Below are positions 4,174 through 64,000 of a stretch of 64,000 nucleotides of DNA, piece after piece. Source of the DNA: a virus; IMG/VR virus record IMGVR_UViG_3300042894_006927, positions 15,790 through 79,789 of that record. One strand, given 5' to 3'. Numbering within the stretch: position 1 is the stretch's first letter; every line of letters starts with the position of its first letter. A model generated the notes under the pieces. The model was not told the origin of the DNA, searched no databases, and saw only the letters and a list, made by a program, of their open reading frames with translations. The position numbers were made by a program, and so were the translations under genes.

Positions 4174-7140
4174 ATGAACTCATACGGACTTGTATTTGGT
4201 GGAGAAAAAACAAGCCACGATAGCGGAAACGATATTGCCTACCAAGTTGTAGCAGGAAATAATTACTCCCAAGTTGTAATTGAGGGCGATGAATATATCC
4301 TGCCAAAAGAAGCAATGCAATCCGAAAAAGTTTACGACTTTGTGGATAAATTGCCTATTGAAATGCTTGACGAAATTAAGCGTTCCGAGAATGTATTTAT
4401 TCAGTTTCCAAATTTACGGCAGGGGGATATGGTTGTCTGCAAAAATTCGGTTCGGAATGATGATTTGCACACAATTAAAGGAACTGCGAAAGAAATTGGA
4501 AACTACCTTCAAGGGCTTTCAGCGTGTAGAATGTATGCGAAAGGCGGTTACATTAGCGGTGAACTTGCCAACGGGGGCGGGGTAGAAGATGAAAGTCAGT
4601 TGCGTTTGCTTACCCCTATGCCACCGACAAAACTTGGCAAAACGGGCATTGATTCTCTAACTGAAATCATTGGAAAAGATAAAATGCGACCTGCCTTTTC
4701 GGGGGCGTTATATGCAGGTAAGGGAAGAATAGTTGCCACCGATGCAAACATATTGGTTGTTCTTGAAAACCAAAACTATCCGAAATCACTTGATGGAACA
4801 ATTAAATCTTTGTGGAATAAAGTGCCACAAGAAAGGTTGGTTGGTATTCCTTATCCAAATTGGGAAGCGGTTGTACCAAGCCAACAAAATTTTCAGACAA
4901 AAGAACTATCAATAGACGATGTTCTCGCCTATGCGTATGGGGGGTTTTTAGAGGGCAAAAAAATTATTAACGAAAAGGATTTTAACAAATACCAAAAAGA
5001 AGTATTCAAATACATTTTACGATTAAACATTGGGAACATTGAAATTGGCGTTGATTCGTTGTTGCTTACCCGTATTTTAAGGACTTTAAAGGCGAATGAT
5101 GTTCGGAAGATTGTTTTTCATATTGGGCAAACAAATCAAAGACCAATCAAAATAACAACCGACAATAAACACTATGGGTTAATAATGCCCGTAATGATTG
5201 CTGATAAAGTTGAAGATTTAGGAGAAGCCATTTATGTTAGTCAACAAATTTTTTACCCTATTTCGGAGAAGGATTTTAGGGCAATGTCAAAAAAATATGG
5301 CGAATACTTAACCGAATTTTCAAAAATGGTTGGGGGTGAAAGAATGGCAGAAGGTGGAGAAATTACTATGAATATGCCGCTTCTGATTCGTGTTTTGGAA
5401 TTGGCTAAAGAGGATGTGAAAGAGGACAAAGAAATTCATTTTATAGCAGAAAGGTTGCAGTCAATCGCAGACAAAGGCACTTTGACTATGGAAGATTACG
5501 ATTACATTTCGGGGTTGGAAAGTAACGACAAAATTCAAAAACTGATTGCCGAAAATGATAGTAACGATTCCGATTTAAGGTTTGAGCAGGGCGGGGAAGT
5601 AGAGGATTTAATAAGCAGAGGAATTGTTGACTTGAAAATGTACGATACAATCCCAAAACACGCAAATGAATATGGTTTGCAATGCCTTAATCCATTGTTT
5701 GTTCAAACTATTTGCGTAAGTGAACCAAAAAGATTAAAAGGTTTAGGCACAAAAGTATTATCGTACATTGAAAAATACGCAATCGAAAATGGACACGATT
5801 TAATTTTTGGTCATATCATTCAAGAAGCAAAATTTACTAAAGACGAAAGACAAACATTTTTTTGTGATATTGATATGATTAAGAATTGGTTGCACTCAAA
5901 CGGATATGCAATCAGGGATGAAAATAATGATTTTCATAAATTCATTCAAAGTAATAAGTTAGAAGGTGGAGGTAGCGTTTTGTTAGCCCCAAACGGAAAG
6001 CCGAGCAATTTAACCCCCGAACAATGGCATTTAGTCCGAACCCACGAATTTAAAGCGTGGTTTGGGGATTGGGAAGCCCTTGAAAACGCTAAATTAAGGG
6101 ATAAGGGAATGGATGAAGTTACCTTGAAAAATTTGGCATCGGATGTTTCAAAGGTTGTTGATGAGAATGGTGAGCCGTTGGTGGTTTATCACGGAGGTTA
6201 TATTGATTTTAATGTTTTTGATATTGATAAGACAGCAAATAAGAGATTTTATTTTACCCCAAGTAAAGAGTACGCTGAATTTAGAGGGCAAGTTTCTAAA
6301 GCGTATTTCTTAAAGATTATAGAATTATATTATGTAGATTGGCAACAAGGGAGAACTTTACAAAAACCAAAAGGTAAATTTTCGGGTTATGCTAATTTAC
6401 TAAATGGTATAAAAAATCTTAATGAAATAATTGTTTTTGAACCTACCCAAATCAAACTTGCCGATGGTAGCAACACTACATTTGATTCCAATAACCCCGA
6501 TATAAGGTTTGAACAAGGCGGGATGTTAGAAAATGGTGTTGGAGGGGAGTACGATAGTTTATATGCTTTTCTTTATTGGCACAAAGAGTACATCCCAATT
6601 TTCGCTAAAAAATACGGCATAAACGAATCGGAGTGGGAAGATTTTGTTAGTGGGGAATTGGGATATGATAAAGAAATTTTGCAAAACATTTTGGGGGATG
6701 GGTACAAACTATTTTACGATGAAGAAAAAGATATGTTTGAGGTTTCAGAGAAAAGGAAGCGAAAAAAATCGGGCAACTATAAAATAGAGAAAGTTTCAAG
6801 TAAAAATGAAAAACAAGTTTTGAGAATAATTAACGAGGAAATAGTTACCGAGTTAAAACCAAGATTAGCAGTTTTTTGGAATGATATGGTTGTGGGTGGT
6901 TCTACTTATGAATTTAAAAATGGCACATATAAATTTGACTTGGCTATTTTACCCGAATATCAAGGGCTTGGAATTTCAAAAGGTTTGATTCAGTCAATTA
7001 TTGACGATGCAAAAATGCTAAAAGCAAAAAGTTTGGAAGCAGAGGTTGTAAACAAAAAGTTGCTTTCATACCTTCAATCAATAGGGTTTTCGGCATACAA
7101 ATCTCAAGGTCAAGATTTTGCTTTCTTATCTCTAAAATAA
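4174..7140 (+). CDS. Polyvalent polyprotein: beta-clamp-like domain, GNAT, ART-PolyVal-like ADP-ribosyltransferase, GNAT; modules separated by xxGG motifs
   Basis: RPAFSG..VATDAN..YPNWEAVVP..GLIMPV (clamp); RLKGLGTKVL and EYQGLGISKGL (GNAT acetyl-CoA loops); EFKAWFGDW..GEPLVVYHG..FYFT..VFEPTQIK (ART-PolyVal). Confidence 0.75.
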   Translation: MNSYGLVFGGEKTSHDSGNDIAYQVVAGNNYSQVVIEGDEYILPKEAMQSEKVYDFVDKLPIEMLDEIKRSENVFIQFPNLRQGDMVVCKNSVRNDDLHTIKGTAKEIGNYLQGLSACRMYAKGGYISGELANGGGVEDESQLRLLTPMPPTKLGKTGIDSLTEIIGKDKMRPAFSGALYAGKGRIVATDANILVVLENQNYPKSLDGTIKSLWNKVPQERLVGIPYPNWEAVVPSQQNFQTKELSIDDVLAYAYGGFLEGKKIINEKDFNKYQKEVFKYILRLNIGNIEIGVDSLLLTRILRTLKANDVRKIVFHIGQTNQRPIKITTDNKHYGLIMPVMIADKVEDLGEAIYVSQQIFYPISEKDFRAMSKKYGEYLTEFSKMVGGERMAEGGEITMNMPLLIRVLELAKEDVKEDKEIHFIAERLQSIADKGTLTMEDYDYISGLESNDKIQKLIAENDSNDSDLRFEQGGEVEDLISRGIVDLKMYDTIPKHANEYGLQCLNPLFVQTICVSEPKRLKGLGTKVLSYIEKYAIENGHDLIFGHIIQEAKFTKDERQTFFCDIDMIKNWLHSNGYAIRDENNDFHKFIQSNKLEGGGSVLLAPNGKPSNLTPEQWHLVRTHEFKAWFGDWEALENAKLRDKGMDEVTLKNLASDVSKVVDENGEPLVVYHGGYIDFNVFDIDKTANKRFYFTPSKEYAEFRGQVSKAYFLKIIELYYVDWQQGRTLQKPKGKFSGYANLLNGIKNLNEIIVFEPTQIKLADGSNTTFDSNNPDIRFEQGGMLENGVGGEYDSLYAFLYWHKEYIPIFAKKYGINESEWEDFVSGELGYDKEILQNILGDGYKLFYDEEKDMFEVSEKRKRKKSGNYKIEKVSSKNEKQVLRIINEEIVTELKPRLAVFWNDMVVGGSTYEFKNGTYKFDLAILPEYQGLGISKGLIQSIIDDAKMLKAKSLEAEVVNKKLLSYLQSIGFSAYKSQGQDFAFLSLK

Positions 7141-29165: not shown

Positions 29166-30080
29166 ATGGCGATACGGAAAAGCAAACCCACAAATGAGCC
29201 GAGTAAAAGGAAATCGGATAGCCGAAGCAACGGCATATCGGTTATTACGGGTATGCAGGGCGTAGGAAAATCATTTAATCTGAACAGCCGAGTAAGGCAG
29301 TACGCCCAATTTCATAAACGCCCCGTAATTGTCTATGATGTAAACGATGAATATGCTGATTATGAAATTGTGCGTTGGTCTGACATTAAAAACCTAAAAG
29401 GCGGTATTGTTCGCAGAGTATTACCCTATAAGCAGAAGCGTAGCGGGAGTAAGGTAAGGGAAATCAAAGCGTTTGACTTGGAAGATTTAAGAAATGGTTT
29501 TTTTTATTTGCTTGAAAACTTTAAAAACGGGTGTTTAGTATTGGATGATTTTAATTCCTACACTATTTCGACACGAAAGACAAACATCCTTTCTACTCTG
29601 ACAAGGGCAAGGCATCACGGGTTGGATATAATTATTGTTTTGCAAGAACTTGGAAAAGTAACCAAAGACCTTTTTGCGAACTCGTCTTATTTCGTAATGC
29701 ACCGACAAAATACTTCGCTTGACATTGAAAGAAAAAAAATAACAAACTTTCCTTTGTTTAAGATTGCAGAGAACATTGTAAATGCTCAATTTCATTTGGT
29801 TGAGAAAATGAATGAAATGGGCAAGTTTTCATTGGAAAGCGAATACAAAATGTATCGTAGTTTTTATGTTGAAATTGATGTAAAGCGAAATAAAATCTAC
29901 GGGTGTACGAGCAGAGAAATGTTCCGAGAAGCAATTAAGAAATACCTTAAAACTTCGGACAAATACCGAGAGGTTTATGAATTTATGGCTGAAAATGATT
30001 TGAGAAAGACGAACAAAGAGGATTTGGATAGGGCTATAAATGAGGTTTCGGGCAGGTATATGGGCTTTTTTGCAGGTTAA
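29166..30080 (+). CDS. Genome-packaging ATPase, A32/FtsK-HerA superfamily
   Basis: ITGMQGVGKS Walker A, IVYDVNDEY, CLVLDD Walker B, ARHHGLDIIIVLQ (Arg finger plus Gln sensor); adjacent to the capsid gene. Confidence 0.8.
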   Translation: MAIRKSKPTNEPSKRKSDSRSNGISVITGMQGVGKSFNLNSRVRQYAQFHKRPVIVYDVNDEYADYEIVRWSDIKNLKGGIVRRVLPYKQKRSGSKVREIKAFDLEDLRNGFFYLLENFKNGCLVLDDFNSYTISTRKTNILSTLTRARHHGLDIIIVLQELGKVTKDLFANSSYFVMHRQNTSLDIERKKITNFPLFKIAENIVNAQFHLVEKMNEMGKFSLESEYKMYRSFYVEIDVKRNKIYGCTSREMFREAIKKYLKTSDKYREVYEFMAENDLRKTNKEDLDRAINEVSGRYMGFFAG

Positions 30081-56251: not shown

Positions 56252-56565
56252 AAAAATCGTATTGATATGTAAAGTCCAAAAATGCTTCCAAGTGTTGCAC
56301 CTAAAGAATAAGAGAACCTATCATTGAGAGTTCCAAAAGCGGCTTTTTTGATATTCAAAGTCCAAATCATTGAAATCAAAAACGAACTAATGATAACACC
56401 GATGTAATTTTTGTGGGCAAGAAAAATCGTATTCATAGCCACAAACATAATTTGCACAAACGCAGTAATGAAAAGCGATAGATTAAACCCGTACCTTAAT
56501 AAAACCAATTTGTAATGTTTGTAAACGGCATATAAAATTGCCCCAATTACTTTTAAGTTTGTCAT
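56248..56565 (-). CDS. Small multi-TM membrane protein
   Basis: FVQIMFVAMNT..SFLISMIW..YSLGATLGS. Confidence 0.6.
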   Translation of the reverse strand: MTNLKVIGAILYAVYKHYKLVLLRYGFNLSLFITAFVQIMFVAMNTIFLAHKNYIGVIISSFLISMIWTLNIKKAAFGTLNDRFSYSLGATLGSIFGLYISIRFL

Positions 56566-57359
56566 AAAAGGTCGTCAAGCGTAAATTTTTTTCTTGGATT
56601 GTTTTGTGGTATTTGCGGTAATGGTGCGGGGATTGGCTCTACCCCGTTTTGTTCGGTAGGTTCAGCCAAAACCCTTTCCTCTAAAGGTTTTGCCATATCG
56701 GTAAATTCAAACGGCACTTCATCTTCTTGGTTTTCCAATTCAAGCAAGTTCGCAGCGACAAGTGTAACAACGGGATATTTACGGGTTTTTCCCGAAATTT
56801 CCTTTTTGGTTCTAAAACTTACAATCAAGTCAAAAGGAACTTCCTGCCAATTTTTGCCATATTGATTAACCATATCTAATGTTCCAATGATGTTTTCAAT
56901 GGAAGATTTACTGCCTTTAGTTTCAAACTGCCAAACGCCCAAGCAATCTTGAAGCCCCCGTATTCCAAAACGCAATTTAAGAGTGTGCCTAAACGCTTCG
57001 ATGCTTGGTACTGATTCTATACCCTTTTGCTCAAATTGATAGGTTTTTGGGTTCATAACTTGGAATGTTTCGCCATCACCATAGGCAATCAAAACACCCT
57101 TATCCCATAATTCATACTGCTCTTGAACGAGAAAGTTTGAATTTACATTTGGGAAAAAAATGGGTATTCTGCTTTGGTTTTCCCCAAATTTTGAATAAAA
57201 AACACTCTTGTAAGCCCCCGATGCAACAAAATAGTCGGTGCTTTTTGGCAAACCTGCTTCGGTCTTTTCGCCAATTTTGATTTTACCGATTATAGGCGGT
57301 TCAATGCTTTTTCCTTTGCGTACAATACGCTTAAATTCATTATCCATTTTCTCTGACAT
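56562..57359 (-). CDS. Gp3-like/recombination directionality factor-like protein
   Basis: IIGKIKIGEK..LPKSTDYF, LGVWQFETKG..SI, KYPVVTL. Confidence 0.6.
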   Translation of the reverse strand: MSEKMDNEFKRIVRKGKSIEPPIIGKIKIGEKTEAGLPKSTDYFVASGAYKSVFYSKFGENQSRIPIFFPNVNSNFLVQEQYELWDKGVLIAYGDGETFQVMNPKTYQFEQKGIESVPSIEAFRHTLKLRFGIRGLQDCLGVWQFETKGSKSSIENIIGTLDMVNQYGKNWQEVPFDLIVSFRTKKEISGKTRKYPVVTLVAANLLELENQEDEVPFEFTDMAKPLEERVLAEPTEQNGVEPIPAPLPQIPQNNPRKKFTLDDLL

Positions 57360-57786: not shown

Positions 57787-58032
57787 AACTTGTATTTTAC
57801 TGCCAAAGTAAGCAACAAAAATTGGAAACAACAATACATATAGCACATAAAAATATCCCAAAGTTTTCAACAATTTGCAAACAGCAGCACGAATAAGCCC
57901 GAAATACAAGCGTATAACACGCATCTTAAAATACAAAAAAAACTTTTTAACACAAGTTTTTAATATGTTGTTGAAAACTTTGTTTGCCTAAATTGGCAGA
58001 AGTCCTTAACATTGTTCCACAAATCAAATCAA

Positions 58033-58881
58033 ATGAAAGTAGTTATTTTTGACCTTGAAACTACGGGTGTAAGTGTAACCCAAGACCGAATAATCGAAAT
58101 CGCACTTAATAAAGGCGAGTTAATTCAAACTGAAAACGGCAGGTGGGATTTTGTTTCTGAACGGCAGTTAAAGCAAGTTTGCAATCCCTTTGCCGAAGAT
58201 TATGTTGATGATGCGGGAAATAGGATTACCGAGTTAAACCCTTTTGTGCTTGAATTAACGGGGTTGCAAGAAGATTTAATACGATTTTTTAGCCCATATT
58301 TTAAAGAAGTTGCAAGAACGGCAGAAGCGTTTATTGGCGACCTGCCTTTAGTTGGCTACAACATTGACAATTTCGATTTTCCGTTGCTTGTAAGAGAAAT
58401 GGAAAGGGCGGGTATTAAAAAGGAGTGGAAAAATCCAACCATTGATGCCCTTACATTGTATAGAAAAATGTTCCCTTCTACCCTTTCAGCAGTTTATGAA
58501 CGATTAACGGGAAAAACATTCAGACACGCACACCGAGCAATGTTTGATGTGAACGCAACGGCAGAAATAATTTGCCATTTGTTTGAGTTCCATTTGCCTA
58601 TTGATGATAAAGCCCCCGATTTTGTAATGGAATCAATAAGTGGCAAAAGGTCAGATATTGATAGAAAATTCAAGTACGATGAAAATATCGGAGATTGGGT
58701 ATTTATGTTTGGAAAGCATAGGGGCAAAGCGGTTAAGCAAAATTTGGACTACCTTAAATGGATGATGATGCCCGACACCGATTTTCACGAATCAACAAAG
58801 CAGTTTGCAAGAGAAATCTTTTTTGATGAAGTTGCTAAACAAAGCGGAATACCCTTCGCAGAAAACAATGAAAATGAATAA
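58033..58881 (+). CDS. DnaQ-like DEDDh 3'-5' exonuclease with C-terminal FGKH domain
   Basis: IFDLETTG, GYNIDNFD, HAHRAMFD; FMFGKHRGK. Confidence 0.85.
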   Translation: MKVVIFDLETTGVSVTQDRIIEIALNKGELIQTENGRWDFVSERQLKQVCNPFAEDYVDDAGNRITELNPFVLELTGLQEDLIRFFSPYFKEVARTAEAFIGDLPLVGYNIDNFDFPLLVREMERAGIKKEWKNPTIDALTLYRKMFPSTLSAVYERLTGKTFRHAHRAMFDVNATAEIICHLFEFHLPIDDKAPDFVMESISGKRSDIDRKFKYDENIGDWVFMFGKHRGKAVKQNLDYLKWMMMPDTDFHESTKQFAREIFFDEVAKQSGIPFAENNENE

Positions 58882-59254: not shown

Positions 59255-59466
59255 AATTACACATTCTTACTACCGAGCAGGTTTTTGAGTACATTAAATC
59301 AAACAACAACGGCATAGTTCCAAGAGGTTGTTCATATCGAAGTTTAAATGCAAGGGCGTTAAGTTCAGACCTTCCCAAAAAAATTATTGTAGGTAAAAAC
59401 GAGGGGAATAGAATTAACCTTTGGGCAGTAGCCGACCTGCAAGACCTTTTAAACTTACTTGTATGA
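59251..59466 (+). CDS. Small putative DNA-binding (excisionase/winged-helix-like) protein
   Basis: LTTEQVFEYI..SYRSL..LP..NLWAVADLQDLL. Confidence 0.45.
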   Translation: MKLHILTTEQVFEYIKSNNNGIVPRGCSYRSLNARALSSDLPKKIIVGKNEGNRINLWAVADLQDLLNLLV

Positions 59467-60932
59467 GCCAAGAGCAGATTGACCAATCGCTTTTTGACTT
59501 AAAATTAGAGCAAAGTGTTTTAGGCACTTTTCTTATCAATAGCGTTTATTTCCAAATTTCTTTGGCTGACATTAGTGGAGAGGTTTTTTGCTTGGAAAAG
59601 AACCAAAACTTTTACGATTTATTGCGTTTTGTTTACGATGAAGAAGGCAAATTTGACCTAAATAGAATTTTCGCTGAAATTAGGTTTCAAAAGAAAGAAG
59701 AAGAATTTTCCAATGCGTTCATTGCTGAAATTTTCGGGGAAGCGGATATTGACAACCTTCACGATTTTTGCAAAATACTCAAAGCGTATTATTTAAGGCG
59801 TTCAATGAACTTGCTTGGAAATAAGTTGTTAGAGGAATCAAAAGATGGAGAAGTAAACCCTTACGACCTTTACGAAGAATCCGTAACGGCACTTTCAAGG
59901 GTTTCCGAACAAGCGAGTAGAATTAAAGTTATTACCGCAGTAAAAGGGCTTATGGAATACATTACTTTAGAGCCGAAAGATAGAAAATCAACGGGGCTTG
60001 ACCTATTGGATGCACGATTTAATGGCGGGGTTTTTGAAACCGATTTGGTAACGATTGGGGCAAGACCCGCTATGGGCAAAACGGCATTTATTTGTTCGGC
60101 TTCTTACAATCTTGCATCAAGGGGCAAAAATGTTCTTATCTTTTCATTAGAAATGAATTACGAGCAGATTTATATGCGACACCTTGCGATGCACACCAAA
60201 GAAACATTTGCATCGGTAAATTCAAAAAGGTTTTTGCACCAAGATTCATTTTGGGCGAGGTTCAAGGAGTTTGAGGAAAAGATTGCCCCGCATATTTTTT
60301 ACATTGATAAATCGGGAATGACATATAACCAAATTATCAATGAAATAAAGCGTTTATGTAAGCAACACCAATTCGATGCCATTTACATTGACTATCTTCA
60401 AAAAACTTTGGGCGAAGCATCAAGCAATGTTAGGATTGAAGTTACAAATGCAGTACAATCTATCAAAAGTTGTGCGAAAGAAGTAAAAACACCGATATAT
60501 TTGCTTTCTCAATTAAAGCGTGAAGTGGACACAAGGGCAATTCCAAGACCAACCTATGCCGACCTTATGGAATCGGGTTCGATAGAAGCGGAATCTGACC
60601 GAGTTTTGTTACTTTACCGACCAATCGCTTATTACGACAAAAGAAAAGATGATAAGTTTCTTACCGAAATGATTAACGGAATGGAACAACCCACACAAAA
60701 TTGGGGAGAGGTAATTATTGACAAGGATAGACACGATGGCGGTAATGGCGGAGTTTGGATGCCTTTTGATGGCAGGACAATGTATTGGTGCAATTTTGAA
60801 AGCGAAATTACATCGGACTACGCAAATCCAAGCGGAAACGGGCAGAGATATAATGATGAAGATAGCGTAAAATCTTCTCAATTTTCAAATCCAAAAACAC
60901 CGAGTTTAGACGATTTTGAATCACCCTTTTAA
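59463..60932 (+). CDS. dnaB: Replicative DNA helicase
   Basis: EQSVLG N-domain, GARPAMGKT, FSLEM, IDYLQ, LSQLKRE, ESGSIE; ATG at 59463. Confidence 0.92.
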   Translation: MSQEQIDQSLFDLKLEQSVLGTFLINSVYFQISLADISGEVFCLEKNQNFYDLLRFVYDEEGKFDLNRIFAEIRFQKKEEEFSNAFIAEIFGEADIDNLHDFCKILKAYYLRRSMNLLGNKLLEESKDGEVNPYDLYEESVTALSRVSEQASRIKVITAVKGLMEYITLEPKDRKSTGLDLLDARFNGGVFETDLVTIGARPAMGKTAFICSASYNLASRGKNVLIFSLEMNYEQIYMRHLAMHTKETFASVNSKRFLHQDSFWARFKEFEEKIAPHIFYIDKSGMTYNQIINEIKRLCKQHQFDAIYIDYLQKTLGEASSNVRIEVTNAVQSIKSCAKEVKTPIYLLSQLKREVDTRAIPRPTYADLMESGSIEAESDRVLLLYRPIAYYDKRKDDKFLTEMINGMEQPTQNWGEVIIDKDRHDGGNGGVWMPFDGRTMYWCNFESEITSDYANPSGNGQRYNDEDSVKSSQFSNPKTPSLDDFESPF

Positions 60933-61888
60933 TGGCAAAGCGGAAAGCAAATAACAATCCCAAAAAGCCCCAAAAACCAAAAAAAAGGGGCAGACCAAGA
61001 AAGAGGGTAAATCTTTCCGTTAAATTCTATTGGCAAATTTATAGGGCTTTAAAAGCGTATTACAAAAAGGAAAAATACAATGTTGAGCCGAGATTGTTGC
61101 GTATTTATGCTAAAGATGCCAACAAGTATTTAGAAGAAAAAGCAAGAAGGGAAGGAAGGCAACGGCAAAAGGAAATTGATTTTTTCATAAAAATCATTGA
61201 GGGGGGCGAAGAAACGAAACTCCAAAGAGAGGAATTATTTGAACTTTTAAATCTGCCATTTCCCGAATTTAAAATTTCTTCGGGATTTTGGTATTGGGAA
61301 TTAGAAAATGAAACAATAAACATTCCGAGAGGGGTAAATTTTATCATAAATTACACTCTAATTGGTGATGAAGATGCCTTTTTTGAGGGTATTCGTGGGG
61401 AAATACCTTACTCTGAAATCGTAAACAAAATAAACGACTATGTTCGCTATGGTGGCGTTCCGAGAGATTCATCAAATGTTCCAATTTGGGATGCTCTTGT
61501 TTTAGAAAATGGGGAAAAAATCGTTATTCTAACACTTGTCGAACAAGATTTTGAGGGTATTCCAATGCCCGAACCCGAACCCGAAGATGAAGGGGAAGGG
61601 CAAGGCGAGGGTGCAGAGGAAAAGCCGAAAGGGGGCGAAAAAGGCGACAAACCAAGCCCAAAAGAACAAAAGGAAAGGGAACGCAAAGCAAAAGCCGAAG
61701 CCGACAAAGCCGACATTGATAAGTTATTTGCCTTGTTAAATGGTAAATTAGACGAGCAGGGCAGAGTGCTTGACATTTTGATTAAAAAGAAACAAGCGGG
61801 AATGGGATATAAAGCGGAACAAAGCAGATTGAAAGTGCTTGAAAAAGAAATTGAGGAACTGCGTAAAAAAATTGATGAATTGCAATGA
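60932..61888 (+). CDS. Basic N-terminal AT-hook protein with C-terminal coiled coil
   Basis: KKRGRPRKR; PMPEPEPE linker. Confidence 0.6.
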   Translation: MAKRKANNNPKKPQKPKKRGRPRKRVNLSVKFYWQIYRALKAYYKKEKYNVEPRLLRIYAKDANKYLEEKARREGRQRQKEIDFFIKIIEGGEETKLQREELFELLNLPFPEFKISSGFWYWELENETINIPRGVNFIINYTLIGDEDAFFEGIRGEIPYSEIVNKINDYVRYGGVPRDSSNVPIWDALVLENGEKIVILTLVEQDFEGIPMPEPEPEDEGEGQGEGAEEKPKGGEKGDKPSPKEQKERERKAKAEADKADIDKLFALLNGKLDEQGRVLDILIKKKQAGMGYKAEQSRLKVLEKEIEELRKKIDELQ

Positions 61889-62688
61889 AAACCAAATTAG
61901 CAGGGAATAAAACTGCGTTTACGAGCCACCTTAAAGATGCCAAAATTGCAAGGGAAAATTTCGTTGCTCAAAAAAGTGGAAGTGTACTCAAAATTGTTAA
62001 AAACGACCAATGCCTTACTTTCCTTACCGCCCCAAAAGCCGAAAAAAATAGTACGCTTTTACAATGTTGCAAGGATGTAAAAATTTCAGCAGAAAAATTC
62101 ATAGAAAAAAGGGGCAATCCAATTTCAGAGGATTATTTTATCCCTACGGAATTTTCAAATTTTGATGATTTAGTTGAGGGTATGGCTCTCTTTAGCATTG
62201 ATGTTAAAAGTTGCTATTGGAGAAGTGCTTATTTGCTTGACATTATTTCGCTTGAAACCTACCTAAAATATCTACCAAACAAGTTAGACCGAAATAAAGC
62301 GATAGGATGCCTTAAAAGGAAAACCGAGAGCATATACTACCAAAGCGGGGTTGAGGTGCGGAGAGAGGTAAAAGAAAACGAATTGGGGCTGATTAACACC
62401 TACATTAAGTCCTACATTTACGACATTTTTTTAGAAGCAAAGGAAAAATTTGAACTTTACCACTATCATACTGACGAATTTTGGATTGGGATTGGAATGG
62501 CGGGGGAATTGGATGCTTTTTTGAAATCAAAGGGATTTAGAACTACTTGCAAAATCTTTAAGGTTCTTGAAATCAAAGATAATGGGGTTTCCGTTTTCTT
62601 TCCAAAGGAAAAAATCGTTAAATTCGTGAGGAAAAAGAAAGAAAATGGCACAAAAGTTTTACGCAAAATCGGGAACGCAACGACTTAA
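61885..62688 (+). CDS. Minimal family-B DNA polymerase-like protein (palm/fingers only)
   Basis: IDVKSCY (motif A DxxSxY), KLDRNKAIG (motif B KxxxNxxxG), YHTDEF (motif C) in correct order; 267 aa. Confidence 0.55.
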   Translation: MKTKLAGNKTAFTSHLKDAKIARENFVAQKSGSVLKIVKNDQCLTFLTAPKAEKNSTLLQCCKDVKISAEKFIEKRGNPISEDYFIPTEFSNFDDLVEGMALFSIDVKSCYWRSAYLLDIISLETYLKYLPNKLDRNKAIGCLKRKTESIYYQSGVEVRREVKENELGLINTYIKSYIYDIFLEAKEKFELYHYHTDEFWIGIGMAGELDAFLKSKGFRTTCKIFKVLEIKDNGVSVFFPKEKIVKFVRKKKENGTKVLRKIGNATT

Positions 62689-62998
62689 ACGCAATCCATT
62701 TGCGGTTGGTTTTTTAGACCTTTTTGTTAATTCGGGTACAATTCCTGCGGGAACGCAAGTTGATGTTGAAAAATTTGTTGTTGAAAGGTATCAAGATGGA
62801 AATAAAAGGTTTGCCGTTTTGACCGATGGGGATTATGTTGATGCCGACAAATTAGTTTCTTATTCCTTTTTGCCCGAATCCGATAGATTGGTTCAATCAA
62901 AACCTAAAAAGTTCCCCGCTTGGGCAATGTTCGCTATTGGAATTGCAGTAGTTGGCGGGGTATATTTGGGCGGTAGGCGTTTGTTTAGAAAGCGGTAA
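62645..62998 (+). CDS. SH3-like domain protein with C-terminal TM
   Basis: IPAGTQVDV..FAVLTDGDYVDA; TM plus RRLFRKR. Confidence 0.5.
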   Translation: MAQKFYAKSGTQRLKRNPFAVGFLDLFVNSGTIPAGTQVDVEKFVVERYQDGNKRFAVLTDGDYVDADKLVSYSFLPESDRLVQSKPKKFPAWAMFAIGIAVVGGVYLGGRRLFRKR

Positions 62999-63406
62999 TC
63001 ATTTTTTGCCACGAAGTAGAAAAAATCCGAGCAGCAATCCTAAAGCCAAAATTGAAGCACCTTCCATTTGCTTAACACGATAGTCCTCTCCCGTAATTGC
63101 TTCCACAAAATCTTCGCAGTCAAAGAAAAACAAGTGATATTCTTTTCTTTTAGCAAGATATTTTCGCATTAAATCATCGGTGGAAATTCCCGAAATCCGA
63201 GTTTTGTTTACACGCAATAGTTTTCTATCCCCAAAAAACTTTTCCCAAGAATCAATGGCACTTCCTTTCTTTGGTGTATTGTGAATCAAATTTGGTTTGC
63301 CATCAATTTCAATATAAACCCCAAAATGATTGATTAAAGGGTAGGTAGTTTTTGTTTCTACAACATCCCCATTTTGTATTCCCGTAGGCAAATTTGGAAC
63401 TTTCAT
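62999..63406 (-). CDS. Permuted NlpC/P60 (LRAT/PPPDE-like) enzyme with C-terminal TM
   Basis: GDVV..HFGVY..IHN..YHLFFFDCEDFV (compare NCEHF); ILALGLLLGFFLL-RGKK. Confidence 0.7.
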   Translation of the reverse strand: MKVPNLPTGIQNGDVVETKTTYPLINHFGVYIEIDGKPNLIHNTPKKGSAIDSWEKFFGDRKLLRVNKTRISGISTDDLMRKYLAKRKEYHLFFFDCEDFVEAITGEDYRVKQMEGASILALGLLLGFFLLRGKK

Positions 63407-63417
63407 TTAGCAAAGTT

Positions 63418-63477
63418 AAAAAAAGGGGGCGGCACACAATAGGTAACCAAACAAACTATGTAGAAAACCCGCCCCCC
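63418..63477 (-). terminator. GC-rich stem with long structured loop and U7 tail on the minus strand
   Basis: GGGGGCGG (63425-32) pairs with CCGCCCCC (63469-76); A7 at 63418-24. Confidence 0.55.
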
Positions 63478-63546
63478 AATTCACTAAATCCGATGCAAAA
63501 ATAGTGTTTTTTCTTTAAAGCCATAATCGGGTACGTTTTTCATAAG

Positions 63547-63777
63547 TTATTTATTAAAGGTTTCGTTGTAGTAATGTTCTGCTGTCAAAGTGCCACCTTG
63601 AACTACATAAGCATCATATTTATCTGCAAATTCAATTATCTGCCCGTTCTCGATTGTTTTTGCTTTTTTCAATGCCCTAAGTAACTCAATGCCAATTTCA
63701 ATCTTAACACTTGAAGGTAGGATATCTTGTAGGTCTTGCCAAAATTGCTCTACTGCCGTTTTTTGCTTGTTGCTCAT
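63547..63777 (-). CDS. Conserved phage hypothetical protein
   Basis: KQKTAVE..AKTIENGQI..AEHYYNETF family pattern. Confidence 0.65.
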   Translation of the reverse strand: MSNKQKTAVEQFWQDLQDILPSSVKIEIGIELLRALKKAKTIENGQIIEFADKYDAYVVQGGTLTAEHYYNETFNK

Positions 63778-63998
63778 AGTTGTTGTTTAACGATTTCAAT
63801 TAGTTTGTTAAGACATTCAAGTTCTGCTTCTTCTTCTCTACCACCTTCAATTAAATAATTTATCATTATTGTGTGATGCGGAAACACCCCATATTGTTCT
63901 CTTAAATTATACTTCTCTCTAAACCATCGAAATGCTTGTTGGTAAAGTGGTGCTGAACATACTTGTCCATGAAATTGCTCATGTGATTTACATTGAGT
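63774..63998 (-). CDS. 3' part of a conserved Bacteroidota-phage protein (truncated by window end)
   Basis: SAPLYQQAFRWFREKYNL..EEAELECLNKLIEIV. Confidence 0.6.
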   Translation of the reverse strand, partial: TQCKSHEQFHGQVCSAPLYQQAFRWFREKYNLREQYGVFPHHTIMINYLIEGGREEEAELECLNKLIEIVKQQL

Positions 63999-64000
63999 AG

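Follow-up and report, generated by a model that had tools for sequence, protein, structure and literature searches.

A 267-residue palm protein resembling family B DNA polymerases and its obligate basic neighbour in a virus from lake water

Can a protein of only 267 residues, carrying the motifs of a family B DNA polymerase (PolB) and little else, serve a virus as a DNA-synthesizing enzyme? The question was raised by an open reading frame, hereafter mini-PolB, that occupies positions 61885-62688 (+) of the stretch of DNA analyzed here (64,000 nucleotides; hereafter the window). The window was taken from IMG/VR record IMGVR_UViG_3300042894_006927 (79,789 bp), which is classed as linear and has a CheckV completeness estimate of 46%. 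Since it spans bases 15790-79789 of that record, its final base is also the final base of the contig, and the mini-PolB gene lies 1.3 kb from the contig's right end. A first-pass annotation, made from the sequence alone, had interpreted the product as a stripped-down polymerase, a primer-synthesizing enzyme or a nucleotidyltransferase, possibly working with a separately encoded exonuclease and with the basic protein encoded upstream (from position 60932). The stretch 60900-64000 was found in 20 lake-water or freshwater metagenome runs from 17 studies, which indicates that the virus is widespread in lakes.

The three motifs that had drawn attention to this gene, D..S.Y (D106-Y111), K...N...G (K133-G141) and Y.TD (Y194-D197), each match the protein once and follow one another in the order known from PolBs; all three appeared in that order in a single one of 200,000 shuffles of the mini-PolB residues, which confirms the first-pass annotation on this point. 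Motif A (DVKSCYW, D106-W112; 62200-62220, +) has its Asp at the close of a strand formed by residues 101-107 and a Tyr, Y111, five residues further on (D+5), and this Tyr occupies the position of the PolB sugar-gate Tyr. The motif B-like segment (KLDRNKAIG, K133-G141; 62281-62307, +) keeps the PolB spacing, with Asn at K+4 and Gly at K+8, and falls within a modeled helix (residues 133-142), while in motif C (YHTDE, Y194-E198; 62464-62478, +) T196 and D197 form the turn of a hairpin made of strands 191-195 and 198-202. Motif A is separated from motif B by 26 residues and motif B from motif C by 55 residues, and with only 26 residues between the first two, the fingers must be tiny.

The conservation of these residues was assessed in an alignment of 81 family representatives sharing 18-30% identity with the query. 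D106 and D197 were the sole invariant residues (81/81 each), so that both aspartates singled out by the first-pass annotation are indeed retained in homologs. Motif A was further marked by C110 (71/81), Y111 (79/81) and W112 (76/81), motif B by a Lys or Arg at K133 (81/81), R136 (76/81), N137 (50/81) and G141 (66/81), and motif C by T196 (67/81). In the family consensus, motif A reads D-h-x-x-C-Y-W, motif B reads K-x-x-R-N-x-A-h-G-x-L and motif C reads h-h-h-T-D-C. The Ser of DxxSxY, given by the first-pass annotation as part of the motif, turned out to be peculiar to the window's subgroup and is replaced in this role by the conserved form just given. Motif B is devoid of the Ser and Tyr of the KxxxNSxYG pattern, and its R136 is better conserved than N137 and G141. 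A conserved basic residue was also found in the last palm strand, K246 (62620-62622, +; Lys or Arg in 72/81), which is a possible counterpart of the primer-contacting lysine of the PolB KxY motif.

An AlphaFold2 model of mini-PolB, computed with the 81-row alignment, had a pLDDT of 94 and a pTM of 0.87. It comprises an N-terminal beta-alpha-beta region (residues 1-54), a palm with minimal fingers (residues ~55-250), in which the K133-G141 helix comes after two short helices, and a low-confidence tail (residues 251-267). As modeled, D106, T196-D197 and K133-G141 are arranged in the way that motifs A, C and B normally are in polymerases. A Foldseek search of the PDB returned Pol epsilon, Pol alpha, UL8, Tgo and Pol II as top matches, with weak E-values (7e-4 and up) and probabilities of up to 1.0. 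The PolB alignments begin at model residue 55-87, where the PolB palm starts, and stop at 249-250 (for example, model residues 81-249 were matched with KOD residues 381-607), and about 150 residues superpose on the palm and fingers of PolBs. Model residues 249-250 correspond to KOD 607-608 and RB69 729, which we take to be the border between palm and thumb, and the offsets of the aligned ranges place D106 on HSV 717, Pol alpha 860 and RB69 411, presumably the motif A aspartates of these enzymes (HSV pol D717, Pol alpha D860, RB69 gp43 D411). Because the matched region covers the palm from its beginning up to where the thumb would follow, mini-PolB is best described as a palm with vestigial fingers, and the fold comparison revealed that the N-terminal, exonuclease and thumb domains are all missing from its 267 residues. 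The very short fingers and the absence of an exonuclease domain proposed earlier are thus borne out by the model and the alignments. The first-pass annotation had made its reading depend on a predicted palm domain, and the fold obtained is a PolB-type palm with short fingers, so that the reading survives. In agreement with what characterizes a PolB palm, a catalytic Asp is present in both motif A and motif C, while motif C lacks the first of the two aspartates of the PolB DTD motif.

At the level of sequence, the relationship could not be detected. Searches of Pfam, PHROGs and the PDB with the protein and with family profiles gave nothing meaningful, none of 81 relatives matched Pfam, the profile search of the PDB returned no PolB, and neither PF00136 nor PF03175 matched anywhere on the window's contig. 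When the family was compared by hhalign with a profile of 78 phi29-type polymerases, the probability was 0.07%; neither this alignment nor the one with phi29 and PRD1 was significant, and in these alignments motifs B and C were co-aligned and motif A was not. In the ESM Atlas, mini-PolB falls among unnamed virus-only clusters, and in the nearest named clusters, which scored low, 10% of the members bear DNA_pol_B_2 or DNA_pol_B. Since no sequence-profile link is detectable, we call the protein PolB-like by its structure and motif pattern and do not count it as a member of a Pfam family. A search of a viral structure library matched small uncharacterized giant-virus proteins, a 290-aa crustacean-virus protein and several phage DNA polymerases.

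A word-indexed search found five close relatives of mini-PolB (47-99% identity), and an exhaustive HMMER search recovered 111 cluster representatives (50% identity clusters) at E<=1e-3. Nearly all family members are stand-alone proteins of 250-310 aa; the extra parts of the few longer ones (339-543 aa) contain no Pfam domain. Pattern scans of IMG/VR yielded 29 further loci, each with a mini-PolB family member, and the counts of neighbours and polymerases given below refer to a set of 30 contigs bearing the cassette, five of which were rated 90-100% complete and most of which are incomplete. No match was obtained when three family members were compared by tblastn with 50,697 phage isolate genomes, and no relatives were found in scans of viral contigs with patterns A1 and A4 or in a scan of cellular genome contigs with pattern A1 alone. 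Likewise, a literature search retrieved no description of such a protein or module, and papers on PolB diversity and polymerase swapping do not mention a protein of this type.

Directly upstream of mini-PolB, the window encodes a protein of 318 aa (60932-61888, +), here called the partner, whose AlphaFold2 model had a pLDDT of 72. Its N-terminus is very basic (13 Lys and Arg and no Asp or Glu among the first 30 residues), and it is composed of a helical region (residues 28-105), an alpha/beta domain (119-206), a disordered charged linker (208-239) and a C-terminal helical hairpin (243-317), an architecture common to the window's protein and the family found in its relatives. The tip of the hairpin is formed by Y293 in the window's partner and by Thr or Ser in most relatives; the corresponding alignment column holds Ser, Thr or Tyr in 26 of 31 sequences, and every one of the 31 has a hydroxyl-bearing residue at that column or directly beside it. 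Clustering of neighbouring ORFs revealed a partner-family gene (188-331 aa) in each of the 28 loci with upstream sequence, and in 27 of them it lies on the same strand and either within 22 nt of mini-PolB or overlapping it, the exception being L003, where a partner-family member is found 2.2 kb upstream. The upstream ORF of the window was not found with a plain HMM of the relatives' partner family; a profile-profile comparison (hhalign) of the window's partner family with that of the relatives gave a probability of 95.3% and an E-value of 2e-8 over residues 25-176. The partner is the sole obligate neighbour of mini-PolB, and the link to the upstream basic protein, suggested at first from the window alone, is strongly supported by this adjacency. 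Searches with the partner gave no match in Pfam, PHROGs or the Atlas, Foldseek returned nothing and a fold search retrieved generic helical hairpins only. A predicted complex of mini-PolB and partner scored 0.28 against a mark of 0.32, a value that speaks neither for nor against their binding.

The two genes belong to a plus-strand block headed by a stand-alone DEDDh 3'-5' exonuclease (58012-58881, +; RNase_T, 4e-16; phrog_192 'DNA polymerase exonuclease subunit', 3e-35) and containing a DnaB-type replicative helicase (59421-60932, +; DnaB_C, 2e-52; phrog_19, 2e-69). The stop codon of DnaB overlaps the start codon of the partner gene (TAATG, 60930-60934), and that of the partner gene overlaps the start codon of mini-PolB (ATGA, 61885-61888), mini-PolB being the last of these three genes; a scan for promoters and terminators gave matches at or below chance. 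Among the 30 cassette-bearing contigs, DnaB was present in 5 and the DEDDh exonuclease in 4. Such figures mark both as lineage-specific neighbours, they led us to reject either one as an obligate partner, and they deprive the proposed cooperation with the separate exonuclease of generality. In another subgroup, a PD-(D/E)XK nuclease (DUF3799) and RecT are encoded 1-3 kb downstream of the cassette (21 loci, among L006-L030), and the block of the DnaB-bearing subgroup also includes DUF932, DUF7833, a DNA methylase and a PD-(D/E)XK nuclease. The survey of related loci thus indicates that the cassette always resides within a block for replication and recombination in which the partner alone is obligate.

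Several other genes were seen in or near these blocks. A DUF7833 protein, which may be a helicase loader or initiator, is encoded upstream of DnaB in two related loci (L005:4047-4640 and L031:6925-7530, directly upstream in the latter). Beside the replication genes, in a divergently transcribed block, the window encodes a Gp3-like 'recombination directionality factor-like' protein (56562-57359, -; PF18897, 8e-29). An LRAT/NlpC-like protein of 135 aa, hydrophobic at its C-terminal tail, is encoded at 62999-63406 (-), and 6 related loci have homologues at a distance of 4-5 kb from the cassette.

The first-pass annotation had also pointed out that no primase is visible in the window. This is correct for the window and does not extend to the contig, as a full DnaG primase (zinc ribbon, DNAG_N and Toprim) is encoded on the same contig outside the window (L002:2157-3872, -); the argument from a missing primase therefore fails. 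Searches of the 30 contigs for Pfam DNA_pol_A, DNA_pol_B, DNA_pol3_alpha (DnaE-type, PF07733) and Prim-Pol gave no match, nor did DNA_pol_B_2 on the window's own contig, while control genomes gave the expected polymerase matches. With DnaG found outside the window and the polymerase searches empty, the virus emerges as one that encodes DnaB and DnaG and no recognized polymerase, a result with which another, very divergent polymerase or the use of host Pol III may be compatible. A DnaG-type Toprim domain is missing from most cassette-bearing contigs, near-complete ones included. Elsewhere on the contig, we noted a UvrD-like helicase in the 15.8 kb preceding the window (L002:11724-13103, +) and, within the window, a polyvalent protein of 988 aa that combines ART-PolyVal and GNAT domains (4174-7140, +) and whose residues 153-340 match phrog_6615 ('DNA polymerase').

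Taken together, these findings led us to hypothesize that mini-PolB is probably an active minimal DNA polymerase that acts with the partner in viral DNA replication; we infer its catalysis, its use of dNTPs, the physical binding of the pair and the role in genome replication. The palm would supply the catalytic aspartates, D106 at a strand end and D197 in a hairpin, the very short fingers helix would carry K133 and R136, and a Tyr would stand at the sugar-gate position. The partner probably provides the grip on DNA, and perhaps the priming function, that the core is without, and the pair would give the virus a DNA-synthesis module of its own, encoded in its replication block. Such a module probably makes short products, in initiation or end synthesis, and could conceivably make the whole genome. 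The invariant aspartates, the gate Tyr, the basic pair of the fingers and purifying conservation over ~110 clusters argue for a working PolB-type nucleotidyltransferase and against a dead scaffold, and the missing thumb, combined with an obligate basic neighbour whose gene overlaps that of mini-PolB, favours a two-protein enzyme. What speaks against an active polymerase is that no sequence profile ties the family to PolB and that the first Asp of DTD is absent; moreover, activity is not known to us from any PolB without a thumb, and a literature search found no such case. In addition, a virus encoding DnaB and DnaG could replicate with host Pol III, and the window's virus could hence do without a polymerase of its own. 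Of the earlier interpretation, the PolB-type fold, the conserved aspartates and the link to the basic partner have held, while the exonuclease and DnaB as a rule and the reasoning from the absent primase have not.

Where on the genome would such an enzyme act? In contigs of at least 45 kb, the cassette lies at a median of ~3 kb from a contig end, and in three loci (L005, L020 and L031) the partner gene begins 37-395 nt from it. Inverted terminal matches were detected in 5 of the 13 contigs examined: they measure 653 bp in G025 (L034/L035) and 127 bp in G007 (L032/L033), and truncated inverted terminal repeats of 114, 57 and 48 nt were found in G015, G023 and G029, respectively. The repeat of G007 is suspect and may be an artefact, since 127 is a common assembler k-mer size. 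Related contigs terminate within 50-350 nt of each other and not at an identical base. No inverted match of this kind was detected between the ends of the window's own contig. Its last 370 bases (63628-64000) reach a word depth of 50-480 in four lake metagenomes, up from ~9, which is 10-50 times higher and accompanied by many alternative continuations and loose ends; these bases are either repeated or common to several strains. The rise in depth and the alternative continuations show that the stop at position 64000 is an assembly break, and because lake-metagenome contigs continue beyond it in several variants, we rejected that position as a physical end of the genome.

A further landmark was provided by a packaging-type P-loop ATPase of the Zot/FtsK-like kind (~300 aa; 29166-30080, +; Pfam Zot, 2e-6; phrog_2666, 6e-13), homologues of which (~280 aa) were found in 20 of 29 contigs, including all five near-complete ones, in mid-contig. 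With the ATPase in the middle and the cassette near the ends, the cassette-bearing contigs share a single fixed linear map. A search of the 30 contigs for Pfam Terminase_6N gave no match. On the window's contig and four complete relatives, neither TerL_ATPase nor the HK97 capsid family was detected, and Pox_A32 was not found; judged by these gene contents, the cassette-bearing lineage may be non-tailed.

The layout of the ends brings to mind a minimal protein-primed module for end replication in which the partner is the terminal protein. According to this idea, the first nucleotide would be joined to the hydroxyl residue at the tip of the partner hairpin (Y293, Thr or Ser in relatives), synthesis on a linear genome would start from its ends, and either mini-PolB or host Pol III would carry out the elongation. 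Its appeal lies in analogy with phi29 (gp3, the terminal protein, and gp2, the PolB) and PRD1 (P8, the terminal protein, and P1, the PolB), where the gene of a non-enzymatic protein of ~260-320 aa is likewise placed directly upstream of the polymerase gene and beside a genome end, and some relatives of mini-PolB have inverted terminal repeats. However, the phi29 and PRD1 polymerases measure 553-572 aa and include an exonuclease, TPR1/TPR2 and a thumb, none of which mini-PolB has, and they share no sequence similarity with it; furthermore, these systems prime covalently, a step that is hypothetical for the mini-PolB pair, and the window's contig has no terminal repeat. The evidence for protein priming accordingly consists of analogy and of the partial terminal repeats of relatives, and comes from contigs other than the window's, whose right end is an assembly break and whose ends show no inverted match. 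As said, the 127-bp repeat of G007 is possibly an artefact. No known terminal protein is similar to the partner, and a virus with DnaB and DnaG has no obvious need of such a mechanism. With 26 residues between motifs A and B and 55 between B and C, there is also no room in mini-PolB for the TPR1/TPR2 insertions that define protein-primed PolBs. We therefore regard terminal-protein function of the partner as a tentative proposal, and protein-primed end synthesis as the most attractive specific mechanism within our main reading, albeit one that we would not expect to hold. It is doubtful, though conceivable, that the pair is the smallest protein-primed replication system yet seen and a hallmark of an unrecognized lineage of freshwater and marine viruses with large (50-146 kb) linear genomes that end in inverted repeats and with virions that are possibly tailless, in which the 267-aa core would start on a hydroxyl of the partner before other factors take over.

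Could mini-PolB instead be the main replicative polymerase, working at the fork with DnaB and DnaG, while the DEDDh exonuclease proofreads and the partner serves as thumb or processivity subunit? Its position in one gene block with exonuclease and DnaB, the DnaG on the contig and the failure to find any other polymerase would fit this assignment. Nevertheless, we consider it unlikely, as exonuclease, DnaB and DnaG-type Toprim are missing from most cassette-bearing contigs, near-complete ones included, and the conserved function cannot depend on proteins that are so often absent; a thumbless core of 267 aa also seems a poor candidate for the processive copying of 50-146 kb. Equally improbable, in our opinion, is a palm nucleotidyltransferase with a task outside replication, be it lesion bypass or gap filling in recombination by RecT and exonuclease, untemplated tailing, the production of a nucleotide signal or of a counter-defence product. 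Here, the PolB-specific spacing of motif B and the superposition of ~150 residues on PolBs favour a templated polymerase, no cyclase or Cas10-type protein was hit among the top-ranked matches, and no defence or anti-defence genes were recognized beside mini-PolB. Finally, a dead PolB remnant acting as a scaffold in a helicase complex is very hard to credit, given that the metal-binding Asp pair, the gate Tyr and the motif B Lys are conserved family-wide, that most family members have no helicase nearby, and that herpesvirus UL8, the inactivated PolB of the helicase-primase complex on which this idea is modeled, is a protein of ~750 aa that has lost the catalytic residues invariant in mini-PolB.

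Compared with canonical family B enzymes (Pol alpha, Pol delta, KOD/Tgo, E. coli Pol II, HSV UL30 and RB69 gp43), mini-PolB has one-quarter to one-third of their size, fingers cut down to ~30 residues and no N-terminal, exonuclease or thumb domain. Its motif C contains TD and not DTD, its motif A reads DhxxCYW and not DxxSLYPS, similarity at the Pfam or profile level is absent, and it has an obligate separate partner. A resemblance in size and predicted fold was found with small PolB-like proteins of eukaryotic large DNA viruses, namely those of Hyperionvirus (268 aa) and Terrestrivirus (342 aa) and the 'divergent family B DNA polymerase' of Dikerogammarus haemobaphes virus 1 (290 aa), all of which were matched by Foldseek with a probability of 1.0 and E-values of 3e-5 to 2e-4. 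These proteins share only 13-18% identity with mini-PolB and are likewise uncharacterized. The piPolB of pipolins, a PolB variant proposed to begin DNA synthesis without a pre-made primer, is a full-length PolB with an exonuclease domain, and it did not appear among the matches of mini-PolB.

If active, mini-PolB would be much smaller than any other polymerase of the family B structural type, and a palm, ~30 residues of fingers and a separate accessory protein would suffice for DNA synthesis, a point of interest for the assembly of replicative polymerases around a palm core; an active enzyme of this size could also yield a compact tool for biotechnology. The module is unannotated, with no Pfam or PHROG family for either protein, and mini-PolB with its partner may represent an undescribed minimal DNA-synthesis system. 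Such a system would explain how a viral lineage with no recognizable polymerase copies its DNA or the ends of it.
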